A stretch of 32,000 nucleotides of DNA, from assembly GCA_046497275.1 (NCBI GenBank), contig JAWOFX010000079.1, forward strand, positions 1 through 32,000, in the 5' to 3' direction. Below the pieces are notes generated by a model. It saw only the letters and a list, made by a program, of their open reading frames with translations. It had not been told where the DNA came from and did no database searches. A program made the position numbers and the translations under genes. Origin of the DNA: Promethearchaeia archaeon (GTDB taxonomy: Archaea; Asgardarchaeota; Lokiarchaeia; Sigyniarchaeales; SOKP01). This document shows, piece after piece, positions 15,444-21,304 of this stretch (positions are counted from its first letter, which is position 1; the number at the start of each line of letters is the position of its first letter).

Positions 15444-17429
15444 ATGGAAAACCTTCCATTTATTAAATTTAAAAATCTCTATGTTATTCCAACTTTTCAT
15501 TTTAGAATAGAGTTTGCCAAGTTTGTCAAGGAAGCTTTCTATAAAATTTATCCTGATATAATTGCTGTAGAATTACCCGGAAATATTAAAGAAGAAGTAA
15601 TTGAAGCCGTTGACAGACTTCCTTATTTATCTTTAATTGGTTATGCGGATACTCTACAATCAAAAAAATTGAATTTTATTCCAATAGATCCGGGAGATTC
15701 TATTATCGAGGCAATACGTATTGGACATGAACATGATATAGAAGTTGAATTTATTGACTTTTCTGTTAAAGAATACCAACCTGAAAGTTTGATATTGCCA
15801 GATGATTATGCTCTAAATAAAGTTGACTTCCAAGAATTTTATAATATTGTCTATCATAATTTTAAGCGAGAGATTAAAAAAAAGAAAGAAAAATTGAGAG
15901 AATCGATAAAATTCAAAGAGTATATCCTTAATGAAGAAGAAAGAGAATATGATAATATTGAAATTGACATTTTAAGAGAACAATATATGGCATCTTATCT
16001 CTTAGAAATAATGCCTATGTACCATAGAATTGTATTTATTTGTGGAATGGCACATTGGGAGGGAATTAAATTTTATTTAGAAAATCCTTTCCTTGTGAGT
16101 GATGTGGATATTAACATCATTCCCCAGAAATATGTCAAAATATATAATATTCGTGGCTCAGATGCTCGTTTTTTATTGAAAGAATTACCATATCACACGA
16201 ATAAATGGTTAAGTTTTAGAAGCGACCTAGCAAAAACCATTTTTAATGGAATTAATACTCCGGAAGAATTGGATAATTTAATCGGGAATTTCGATAAAAA
16301 CAAGCATATTGAAGAAATATTATTAAAATCAAAAGAAAGATATCAAAAAGAATTTAAAGAATTTATAGATTTACATAAGCTAAAAACTCTCTTTCAATAC
16401 ACGAGAAATTTAGCCATTATCGAGGATCGCTTATTACCTAATCTTTTTCATCTAATTAGCGCTTCGAAAAATGTGGTTGATGATGATTATGCGTGGAAGG
16501 TTCTGGAAACTGCAACCTACTATCCTTATGATGATAAAAGCGAGAATTATGATAGTTTAAAATTAACAGGGGAAGCTGGATATGATCCTGATGGTCGATA
16601 TATTAAATTAAGAAGATCGCAACCTTATTATAGTCAAGAGCACAAAGAGATCCCATTAGATAAGAAACCAAAAGAAAAATATCCTGGAGAGTGGAGAGAT
16701 GAATGGGAAGAAGGAAAATGGAATATTGTTTCCTATCCTCCAGAAGATAAATTAGAGGAGGAGTATTTTGCCTTCATTAGAAAAAAGGCTATTAAGAATT
16801 TACAAGATCAAAGAATTAATATTGAAGAATTCAAATCAAGTATTAAGGATGGAATTGCAATTAAAGAAACGATACGGGAATGGGGGATCAAACAAAAAAT
16901 ATATGTGAAAAACGAACAGCAAATCCAAGGGAAGGTGGATACATTAATTGTTATTTTTGATGAAGATGAAAATGATCCTGAGAAATATCCATATAAGTTA
17001 ACATGGTGGGCAGAACATGACAAGGAGAGCAACATGGCATTTTATGCTACTAATCCTGGAGAATATCTAATCGGACCAGGTATATCTCACGTTGAAGTTG
17101 GTGGACTCTTATCTATATATCCACCGATCTATATCACCCAGGTATTTGAATCTTACAGTGATTATCTCTATAAAGATGTGAGAAATAAAGCAGAAAGGCT
17201 TCTCAAAACAGGAATCCTTTATTCACGAGAAAAACACATTGTTTATGTGGCTGAAAAACCTCCGCGAAAATATTTCTATTCTTTGGCGGGAGTTAAACAT
17301 CGAAATCTAGTCTATATTCCCTTAGATCACTTCTCTCAAGAATCCTTGAAAACAATAAAACATATACACATTCTCGCAGGGAAGAATAAAAGAAAAATAG
17401 CACCTAAATACATTTTCTTGGATAAATAG
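15444..17429 (+). CDS. Conserved hypothetical MoxR partner with TraB/GumN(TIKI)-like N-terminal domain
   Basis: P-x-x-H...PDIIAVELP...RE-x-x-MA...VFICGMAHW motif order. Lies 60 bp downstream of the MoxR gene on the same strand. Confidence 0.6.
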   Translation: MENLPFIKFKNLYVIPTFHFRIEFAKFVKEAFYKIYPDIIAVELPGNIKEEVIEAVDRLPYLSLIGYADTLQSKKLNFIPIDPGDSIIEAIRIGHEHDIEVEFIDFSVKEYQPESLILPDDYALNKVDFQEFYNIVYHNFKREIKKKKEKLRESIKFKEYILNEEEREYDNIEIDILREQYMASYLLEIMPMYHRIVFICGMAHWEGIKFYLENPFLVSDVDINIIPQKYVKIYNIRGSDARFLLKELPYHTNKWLSFRSDLAKTIFNGINTPEELDNLIGNFDKNKHIEEILLKSKERYQKEFKEFIDLHKLKTLFQYTRNLAIIEDRLLPNLFHLISASKNVVDDDYAWKVLETATYYPYDDKSENYDSLKLTGEAGYDPDGRYIKLRRSQPYYSQEHKEIPLDKKPKEKYPGEWRDEWEEGKWNIVSYPPEDKLEEEYFAFIRKKAIKNLQDQRINIEEFKSSIKDGIAIKETIREWGIKQKIYVKNEQQIQGKVDTLIVIFDEDENDPEKYPYKLTWWAEHDKESNMAFYATNPGEYLIGPGISHVEVGGLLSIYPPIYITQVFESYSDYLYKDVRNKAERLLKTGILYSREKHIVYVAEKPPRKYFYSLAGVKHRNLVYIPLDHFSQESLKTIKHIHILAGKNKRKIAPKYIFLDK

Positions 17430-19175: not shown

Positions 19176-19629
19176 TCTTATAACTCCGTAATTTTTAATT
19201 TTAAAAATTATTGAAAATTATTGATTAGAATTCTTAATATTTTACGCTTGATCAAATAAGTTCCTATTTAACCAAGAAAGTATTTTAATTATTTAGATTC
19301 TTAGCAAATAAATATTTTTCAATACAATTAATAATATTAATTAAATTAGAATTTTCTCTGAAATTATTTTAAAAATGATTTAAAATAATATAAATTTCTT
19401 CACATGAAAGATTAAAGATTTTTAAATAACAAGAATAGATATAATGGAAATAAATTTTTTAGTTCGCCTCTCCCAACAGTATTTTTTCCTTTATCTTACC
19501 TCAAATAAAATAGTGTATTTTTATCAATACTTAACCCCAATATAATTGAATTGTTCTCGTATTCATAGAATTAAGAAAATTTAGTGAGTGTTATTTTTAA
19601 ATTTCAAAATTATATTAATAATCATAGAA

Positions 19630-20733
19630 ATGACTGAATTTCGAGTAAATAAATTTATTACTCTTAGATTAGAGGGAAAAGAAACAGTCATATATGTTAA
19701 GAAAGAGCGTTTTCGACAGTGCAAATATTTATTCTTAATTGATCCAAGAAACACGGTCGATAACGATATTAATTCTATTGATGAAGCGGCGGAATCTTTT
19801 GAAAAGAAAATGGAGGGAGAGAATTTTACCTTGGATGAATTAGGACTTACTTCTGAGGATGTGTTTTGGGGACATTGCTCCAACCTCCAAGCGTGGGCGG
19901 AGAATGGGTATGATACACGGCTTATTCACTCTAATTTAGCATTCCCGCTGCTGAGGGTGCTGGCAGAGAAAGGGGACCCGCAAGCGAGAAAAGTTTTTAA
20001 AGAAGAAATCGCGCGACGCTTCTTAGAAGGGTCAATAACTACGAAAATTTTTCTTATGAATGAGGGTTTTCTTGATATCCTAACTATAGAAGAACTAGAA
20101 AGCATCATTCCGTCTAATATCATTTCTAAAATAAAATCTCTTAAGAATTTAATCGGAAAACGATTAAAAATGAAGAGTGACATAAGGGGAGTGGGACGAG
20201 AGTTAAATGCATACTCCTATGAGGAGGGTTATATCACAGGGATGAAATTTAGCTGTAAGACATTGGACAAATTCCCCGAAATTTTGAGAAAATTTTCTGA
20301 GCTTAAGATGCTTGAGATGGCATTGAAAAAAATAGAAGTGATTCCTGAATGGATTAATGAACTAAAGAAATTGAAAACGCTGAATTTAAGCTCTAATGCG
20401 ATTAGAAAAATACCCGACTTGAGCCTGCCAGAGTTGGAAACGCTTAGATTATCCTACAACCAACTGGAAACCATAGACTTTAGTGGGAGCGATTTGCCCA
20501 TACTAATGGAACTATATCTAAGTGATAATAGAATACACACAATTAAAGGATTAAAAAACCTAAAAAAACTTAAGATGCTAAGTATATGGCGAAATCAAAT
20601 CAATGATCTTCCCAATGATTTATTGAAATTACCTAAATTATTTGAAATAAGAATTAATAATTTAAATCCTATTAAAATTGACGAAGATAGTGTAGCTAAA
20701 GAATTAAAAAAAAAAGGAGTAGAGATTTATTAG
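19630..20733 (+). CDS. Lokiarchaeal-type leucine-rich repeat protein
   Basis: N-terminal EFRVNKFITLRLE...FWGHCSNLQAWAENGYDTRLIHSNLAFPLL domain plus ~5-6 LxxLxLxxN repeats. ATG at 19630 preferred over GTG at 19588. Confidence 0.85.
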   Translation: MTEFRVNKFITLRLEGKETVIYVKKERFRQCKYLFLIDPRNTVDNDINSIDEAAESFEKKMEGENFTLDELGLTSEDVFWGHCSNLQAWAENGYDTRLIHSNLAFPLLRVLAEKGDPQARKVFKEEIARRFLEGSITTKIFLMNEGFLDILTIEELESIIPSNIISKIKSLKNLIGKRLKMKSDIRGVGRELNAYSYEEGYITGMKFSCKTLDKFPEILRKFSELKMLEMALKKIEVIPEWINELKKLKTLNLSSNAIRKIPDLSLPELETLRLSYNQLETIDFSGSDLPILMELYLSDNRIHTIKGLKNLKKLKMLSIWRNQINDLPNDLLKLPKLFEIRINNLNPIKIDEDSVAKELKKKGVEIY

Positions 20734-20984
20734 AAAATTATTATTACAACGAAACTGATAGGTATGGATTTCCATCTTGACCAAGAGAAATTAGATAATT
20801 AATTTTTTTACTTGAATCTAATTGCTTTTTCTAAGAAATTATAAAGTCAGTCAAAATACCTTTTAAAGTGAGTTGTTTTTCACTATTAATTTAAAATTTT
20901 TTATTGATATTTTTTATAATTCGTGAATTTAAAAAGTACTATTTTTGGAGCATATTTTTTGGAGTGTTATTATAATGAAAAGGT

Positions 20985-21126
20985 GGCTCTCAGCCACAGA
21001 GACCTAAAGACAAGGTCAAAAATGAAATAGGGGGAGAAGACAAATCATCTCAGCGTTAAGCCGAGACACTAAGTGTATACTCTACACTAACCAAAAGACA
21101 AAAATCCAGGGTGTGAACTGAGAGCC
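20985..21126. ncRNA. Unclassified structured non-coding element (candidate ncRNA or MITE)
   Basis: 142 bp with 63 G+C (44%), versus 12 G+C in the 100 bp at 21141-21240. Terminal IR GGCTCTCAG/CTGAGAGCC, three internal hairpins, AAGACAA three times, no plausible ORF. Confidence 0.45.
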
Positions 21127-21304
21127 GTTTATATACGCCCTATTTATTTTTTTAAATTGGTATATCTATTTTATTAATATATGAAAATTTTTGCCTATCA
21201 CTATTTTTATTAATATAATTATAAACTTGTTAGATATTTATATTTATTGAAAGATTATCTGGATTACCCTTTTTATAGAAATATATTACCTATTGACTAA
21301 TAAA

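Follow-up and report, generated by a model that had tools for sequence, protein, structure and literature searches.

The window analysed here, a stretch of 32,000 nucleotides from a Lokiarchaeia genome, contains a compact GC-rich island (20985–21126) that lies between a gene for an LRR protein (19588–20733, plus strand) and one for a small membrane protein. The GC content of the island is 44.4% versus 12% at 21141–21240; the 100 bp preceding it have 17% and the whole window 31.6%. No open reading frame of at least 40 aa covers the island. It is closed by an inverted repeat, GGCTCTCAG (20985–20993) and CTGAGAGCC (21118–21126), which is extended inwards by CACA (20995–20998) and TGTG (21112–21115), and it encloses three hairpins: GACCT/AGGTC, TCTCAGC/GCCGAGA and AGTGTA/TACACT (see Table 1 for coordinates). 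Additionally, the motif AAGACAA occurs at 21007, 21037 and 21095 (and six times across the whole window), a competing hairpin, GTGGCT/AGCCAC, spans 20983–20997, and the dinucleotide GT flanks the island on both sides. The GC contrast with 21141–21240, the closing repeat, the hairpins, the three AAGACAA sites and the GT flanks had been picked out in an earlier, sequence-only reading of the window, and each was reproduced from the sequence. Folding was compared with dinucleotide shuffles for both strands: the plus strand of the island folds with −39.5 kcal/mol (z −2.86) and the minus strand with −49.1 kcal/mol (z −4.91), the latter energy being equalled by none of 200 shuffles.

The island is a genuine gene for a structured small RNA, and this RNA is a member of an undescribed Lokiarchaeia family. 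A cmscan search of Rfam 15, whose families include 5S rRNA, Y_RNA, C/D and H/ACA sRNAs, ribozymes and HEARO, with E-values up to 10 gave no match on the element, and no match at gathering score anywhere in the window; ARAGORN recognizes neither a tRNA nor a tmRNA in the element, and a literature search returned no description of such an RNA. The sequence-only reading had put forward a non-coding RNA without a catalogued family, and the Rfam scan bears this out. The homologues that it left to be looked for do exist, both as paralogues in the same genome and as copies in relatives, and they include a syntenic copy and covarying helices. In the host genome itself, BLAST finds two further loci, with exact matches limited to 28 nt and 22 nt, so that there are three copies in all, each containing the identical 22-mer CCCUGGAUUUUUGUCUUUUGGU. 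Their closing helices are GGCTCTCAG/CTGAGAGCC in the window copy, GGCTCCTGT/ACAGGAGCC on contig C137 and CCTTGCT/AGCAAGG on contig C25, and all three have one architecture. Our model R2 likewise gives exactly three significant matches in this genome (E-values 2e-21, 2e-17 and 4e-15), the next best match having an E-value of 0.14. A weak match to the model within the window (16609–16704) is a partial look-alike that we judged to be noise.

Approximately 110 copies of the family were collected from relatives; a covariance model was built from 30 copies of the main type (type A), and 101 copies were aligned to it. The layout of the family comprises a covarying closing helix (P1), two hairpins, an unpaired pyrimidine-rich tract and the 22-mer CCCUGGAUUUUUGUCUUUUGGU. 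In the alignment of 101 copies, standard pairs occupy 92.2% of the cells; the figure falls to 65.7% for shuffles and does not exceed 55% for slid partners. Moreover, all 23 of 23 pairs have changed on both sides, in 529 cells, including all 12 pairs of P1, and the observed covariation score was reached by no shuffle. Fitting the alignment to the model introduces some bias towards the structure; the margin is nonetheless large. What is conserved is the unpaired segments, the helices varying freely as long as pairing is maintained. Besides type A there are a type B, which does not have the GACCU hairpin, and some shorter forms, and the invariant block is common to all of them. The type-B copies (L003:1440–1490, L046, L044 and L060) have one more hairpin, GACAG...CUGUC, which separates the TTTAAATA box from P1; they are found at a fixed distance of ~200 nt after a conserved gene of ~90 aa.

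Table 1. Anatomy of the window copy, with the minus strand taken as the RNA, and of its divergent neighbour
Feature	Coordinates	Strand	Basis
Small RNA gene core, from closing helix through 3' tail, ~149 nt	20980–21128	−	Match to model R2, 85.8 bits, E 2e-21; fold z −4.91
P1, 5' strand: GGCUCUCAG plus CACA extension past a bulge	21112–21126	−	Coordinates confirmed; P1 covaries (101 members)
Invariant single-stranded block	21087–21111	−	22-mer at 21090–21111 is CCCUGGAUUUUUGUCUUUUGGU on the RNA and includes AUUUUUG
P2 hairpin AGUGUA/UACACU, immediately 3' of the invariant block	21072–21088	−	Six covarying pairs; wobble pairs 33 minus versus 4 plus
P2a, optional extra hairpin	21048–21066	−	Some members only; perfect stem in same-genus orthologue L047
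Unpaired pyrimidine-rich tract, includes UCUUCUCCCCCUAU	21018–21047	−	Alignments
P3 hairpin GACCU/AGGUC	21001–21017	−	Five covarying pairs, 96.9% paired
P1, 3' strand	20985–20998	−	Covariation and confirmed coordinates
3' tail ACC-UUUU, likely oligo-U terminator	20977–20984	−	NCC-then-U tails commonest in the family
Upstream leader and promoter region	21127–21200	−	Promoter placed at family level
Divergent neighbour, small membrane protein of 132 aa	21305–21703	+	Single copy; syntenic partner in ~57 genomes

The family alignment also separates those elements of the island that belong to the family from those that do not. The family consensus of the pyrimidine-rich tract includes GCCCUCCUCCCCCUAU; read by eye from the alignments, the sequence of this tract differs among paralogues and apparently is still pyrimidine-rich. 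The sequence-only reading had drawn attention to AAGACAA as a triplet: the copy at 21095 indeed falls within a conserved block, but the other two, judged by eye, lie outside the conserved blocks. Nor did its suggestion that GTGGCT/AGCCAC might compete with the closing stem as in a switch survive the comparison, as this hairpin is seen in the window copy and its same-genus orthologue, but the 3' ends of the 101 members fold no better than shuffles (mean z −0.16).

The family is nearly universal within one taxonomic family of Lokiarchaeia. Of 36 genomes from the taxonomic family of the host, 35 contain the 22-mer with no more than 3 mismatches, in 1–12 copies each, the reversed control giving ~0, and model R2 matches 79 of the 81 genomes of this family (f1). 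In the rest of the order, the model matches 3 of 14 genomes of the sister family (f2) and none of the 5 genomes of f3 and f4; in a phylum-wide sample, it matches all 25 f1 genomes and yields 1 weak match among the other 125. The f2 matches are true, diverged homologues, with the same junction, UGAUUUCGC motif and tail. This f2 variant has an invariant 18-mer of its own, ATTTTGTCTTTTTGGATG, which recurs without mismatch in several f2 genomes, including three closed ones; the single-contig genomes G044, G050 and G055 carry the variant. The core common to f1 and f2 is UUUUGUCUUUU(U)GG, and outside the order the frequency of this short core motif is at control level. That each lineage has its own frozen block suggests co-evolution with a partner.

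In ~57 genomes, which represent every f1 genus, one copy of the RNA gene lies 180–550 nt from a homologue of the 132-aa membrane protein, always divergently, as counted by pairing the coordinates of the RNA matches with those of the membrane-protein homologues; the window copy is the one so paired. The membrane protein belongs to no Pfam family, and 70 of the 81 related genomes encode it exactly once. By sequence reading it is a four-helix protein, and the clusters nearest to it in the ESM Atlas, for which no function is given, come from Promethearchaeota. On the other side, the RNA gene is faced by the convergent LRR-protein gene; L053, L057 and L114 also have neighbours that encode LRR proteins. 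Overall, convergence with the downstream gene is seen for 42 of 100 copies, that in the window among them, and supports a stand-alone gene. In 15 of the collected loci, a gene encoding a radical SAM protein (Zn_ribbon_HMPTM plus Radical_SAM; e.g. L030:1819–3021) is found co-oriented 211–609 nt downstream of the syntenic RNA; there is no such co-oriented gene downstream of the RNA in the host genome of the window. This pair of domains also occurs in an enzyme associated with the synthesis of archaeal tetraether lipids. The type-B copies have conserved neighbours of their own. No transposase, integrase or reverse transcriptase recurs beside the ~110 copies, and seven neighbour proteins scanned against Pfam were LRR, radical SAM, PadR and VWA proteins and proteins without a family. 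Given the fixed neighbours, the copies are old, stably placed paralogous genes, not mobile DNA.

Very probably, the small RNA gene is read from the minus strand (21128 to 20980). The sequence-only reading had favoured this strand on account of G·U pairs, and two lines of evidence from the family now agree with it. Across the helices, there are 131 wobble pairs on the minus strand versus 54 on the plus strand (p = 1e-8), the bias in P2, the hairpin beside the block, having p = 1e-6; in P2a, the window copy differs from L047 by one base, which makes a G·U pair in minus sense and A/C in plus sense. Furthermore, a TTTAAAT(A) box in minus orientation is concentrated 81–90 nt 5' of the block, where 21 of 106 copies have it versus at most 4 in other bins, and it is also seen in type-B copies with unrelated neighbours; its position would place the start site ~37 nt before P1, with an A-rich leader. 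In the opposite case, a plus-strand RNA would expose GGGGGAGGAGGG, a tract rich in purines, and its invariant block would be rich in A. The plus-strand fold also beats its shuffles, in most copies the plus strand has T-runs immediately after the element (seen as an A5 peak just upstream in minus sense), and the syntenic copies have a gene following on that strand. We nonetheless regard a plus-strand RNA as distinctly unlikely, given the wobble bias, the far better minus-strand fold, and the fixed TTTAAATA box on the minus-strand 5' side, an orientation that is the commoner one (25 versus 16). The terminators are no guide to the strand: T5 runs are most frequent directly past P1 in minus sense, and T-runs flank the element in a sense that suits either strand.

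Parts of the stretch are present in eight salt-lake metatranscriptome runs from two studies. In the four runs that were compared with the locus, contigs covering 21071–21113 have word depths of 814, 310, 2245, 1575 and 1200, and those of the neighbouring mRNA have word depths of 2–25. The loose ends of the RNA contigs match other members of the family, for example L119, rather than the window copy, and hence the abundance is that of the family core. The family core is thus very abundant in the RNA libraries, from contigs that miss the unique part of the window copy and give neither strand nor ends.

How such an RNA might act is suggested by its layout. Our preferred model, in which we place as much trust as doubt, is that the small RNA is the product of a stand-alone gene and works in trans as an RNA–protein particle with a protein handle; both the role in trans and the protein partner are what we infer. 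In this model, a promoter box precedes the closing helix by ~65–70 nt, and an NCC-oligo-U tail forms the end of the gene. The RNA is predicted to form a three-way junction made up of the closing helix P1 and two hairpins, and this junction would expose two long unpaired segments: the invariant U/G-rich block and the pyrimidine-rich tract that varies among paralogues. The invariant block may serve as the handle for a dedicated protein, with the CU-rich tract presumably being the working surface, whether by base pairing with mRNA segments that are purine-rich (Shine-Dalgarno-like) or by docking a pyrimidine-binding factor.

From its sequence, the leading, if tentative, candidate for the protein partner of the handle is an Sm-like archaeal protein, because the block holds AUUUUUG plus a second U-tract (in the order AUUUUUG, GUC, second U-tract), and AUUUUUG is the archetypal Sm/Hfq ligand. 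The host genome has four genes for LSM-domain proteins (loci L154–L157), and a sequence of Sm-site type, GGAUUUUUGUCUUUUGG, occupies an unpaired part of the consensus, with P1 on one side and P2 on the other. Counting against an Sm handle, the 22 invariant bases exceed what an Sm ring alone would need. Regardless of the identity of the partner, the identical block heads the structurally different subtypes A and B as well as the shorter forms, and it is without a genomic counterpart, the sites in the host genome that could pair with the whole block, wobble allowed, numbering 16 versus 18 in the reversed control; a protein handle therefore fits better than a long antisense. The CU-rich tract is similar to an anti-Shine-Dalgarno sequence, and a Shine-Dalgarno signal is seen in a subset of the host's genes, with G enriched and GGAGG and GGTGA peaking at −15 to −6 before ATG; the 16S rRNA of the assembly is a 5' fragment at a contig end (C106, positions 4–828), the 3' end of which is unreadable. 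Some paralogues have lost the C's of the tract, and in the f2 variant the C-run is itself part of a small hairpin; not all members, then, can function by anti-Shine-Dalgarno pairing. Moreover, when the CU tracts and the block were scanned for duplexes with 3048 start regions across the genome, pairing was not enriched relative to coding controls or to a shuffled query.

The invariant block might instead be a base-pairing seed for A/C-rich or purine-rich mRNA sites. There is precedent in GcvB, which pairs with mRNA through a G/U-rich seed, and the seeds of sRNAs are often single-stranded and invariant, as this block is; in 9 of 17 syntenic loci, the best duplex with the mRNA of the neighbouring membrane protein falls at its start codon, and a 21-nt perfect complement of the block is found within a viral ORF in two IMG/VR contigs. 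The pairing with the neighbouring mRNA is, however, weak (mean z −0.7 over the 17 loci, and +0.39 for the window copy), start regions are not enriched for pairing, the host genome holds neither a full-length nor a wobble-tolerant target above control, and the viral match, being to an A-rich 20-mer in a very large collection, may be chance; a seed function is consequently unlikely. In the viral contigs (L160:276–296 and L158:6071–6091), the complement is located inside an ORF of 736 aa, two ORFs upstream of a gene for a Clp protease, which is taken to be of the prohead-protease type; it could be a chance occurrence in A-rich, low-complexity coding sequence, or a true target or decoy. A type I toxin–antitoxin pair was rejected, as the pairing with the neighbouring mRNA is not significant and the protein, at 132 aa versus less than ~60 aa for such toxins, is a conserved single-copy one. 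A reading in cis, by which P1 and the U-tract would control read-through into a co-oriented downstream gene in the manner of a leader or riboswitch, draws on the radical SAM gene at the 15 loci and on the likeness of a three-way junction with conserved joining strands to an aptamer; it is very unlikely in view of the 42 of 100 copies, the window copy among them, that face a convergent gene, which rejects a cis leader for all copies, and also of the unrelated downstream genes of the paralogues, the long gaps and the T-run that ends most copies.

Two further readings concern mobility at the DNA level. The sequence-only reading had entertained a MITE, with GT as its target-site duplication, and a related possibility is an orphan transposon guide RNA of the IS110 bridge-RNA type; in favour of either are the terminal inverted repeat, the GT on both flanks and the presence of several copies per genome. 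Both are now contradicted, and jointly barely credible: there are no dispersed full-length copies, those in the genome being alike over 22–28 nt only; their terminal helices differ and covary; the position is the same, syntenic one in ~57 genomes and across genera; no DEDD recombinase recurs among the ORFs flanking ~110 copies; and GT, which is not repeated at the other copies, is part of a conserved AAAGGTG flank. Rather less easily dismissed, if still quite improbable, is that the invariant block doubles as a DNA site at which mobile elements recombine or integrate, much as integrases use tRNA genes as integration sites. Partial or orphan copies in the relatives G023 and G016 (L012, L102 and L034) end exactly at the edges of the block, L012 retaining only the 5' strand of P1 and the block, and L102 only the block and the remainder, so that the block may be a point of recombination. 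Many copies are located at the end of a contig, as is one true member in an IMG/VR contig. On the other hand, no integrase or transposase recurs among the neighbours (including the seven proteins scanned against Pfam), the partial copies do not make matching left and right halves, and contig ends are expected of any multi-copy sequence.

Returning to the RNA–protein particle, the small RNA can be compared with several known classes. It resembles the Hfq/Sm-associated sRNAs of bacteria and archaea in having an internal, single-stranded U-tract of AUUUUUG type beside a hairpin, a stem leading into a 3' oligo-U tail, a variable segment that is exposed and might be a seed, several sibling copies per genome and Sm-like genes in the same genome; the RNA differs from them in its conserved block of 22–25 nt, much longer than the footprint of an Sm ring, in the three-way junction closed by its 5' and 3' ends, and in that no targets were found. 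Y RNAs (the partners of Ro60; Y_RNA and YrlA in Rfam) are ~100–150 nt long and occur as several abundant paralogues; a long stem joins their 5' and 3' ends, the internal loop is rich in pyrimidines, and the tail is oligo-U. The present family is like them in its length, end-pairing stem, pyrimidine-rich segment, oligo-U tail and abundant paralogues, but it matches neither Y_RNA nor YrlA at E-values up to 10, and membership was rejected because the TROVE domain of Ro (PF05731) is absent from the host genome, which is 98.9% complete, in a search that found its positive controls. A search of the same genome for La domains gave no match, its positive controls being likewise silent. With the GC-rich archaeal sRNAs HgcC, HgcE, HgcF and HgcG, the element has in common that it is a GC-rich structured island in an AT-rich spacer; that class, however, is set by its route of discovery (screens of GC content) and not by homology, and there is no Rfam match here. 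Finally, the Sm site of U7 snRNA is AAUUUGUCUAG, and like the Sm-class snRNAs of eukaryotes, of which U7 is an example, the RNA has a U-rich Sm-type site, with UUUGUCU, between a paired region and a hairpin; it is also small, abundant and, as proposed here, particle-bound, and the host belongs to the archaeal lineage nearest to eukaryotes. Unlike those snRNAs, it has no spliceosomal or histone-processing context, and the resemblance, which is in a short motif and not in demonstrable homology, is a lead only.

Very little is known of the non-coding RNAs of Asgard archaea. The family described here is near-universal in one family of Lokiarchaeia, with a variant in the sister family, and it is multi-copy and abundant, with a fixed locus and 22 invariant bases; its near-universality, abundance, fixed locus and invariant bases are the usual marks of a core rather than an accessory RNA. 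U1, U2, U4, U5 and U7 are different RNAs with one common protein handle. It is a doubtful but consequential reading that the invariant block is a true Sm site, and that the family and its f2 variant form a class of small RNPs defined by that site, a prokaryotic counterpart of the Sm-class snRNPs and conceivably their forerunner. If so, structurally different Asgard RNAs would share one protein handle, and, should the partner prove to be Sm-like, the family would offer a testable model of Sm-type RNPs before eukaryotes.
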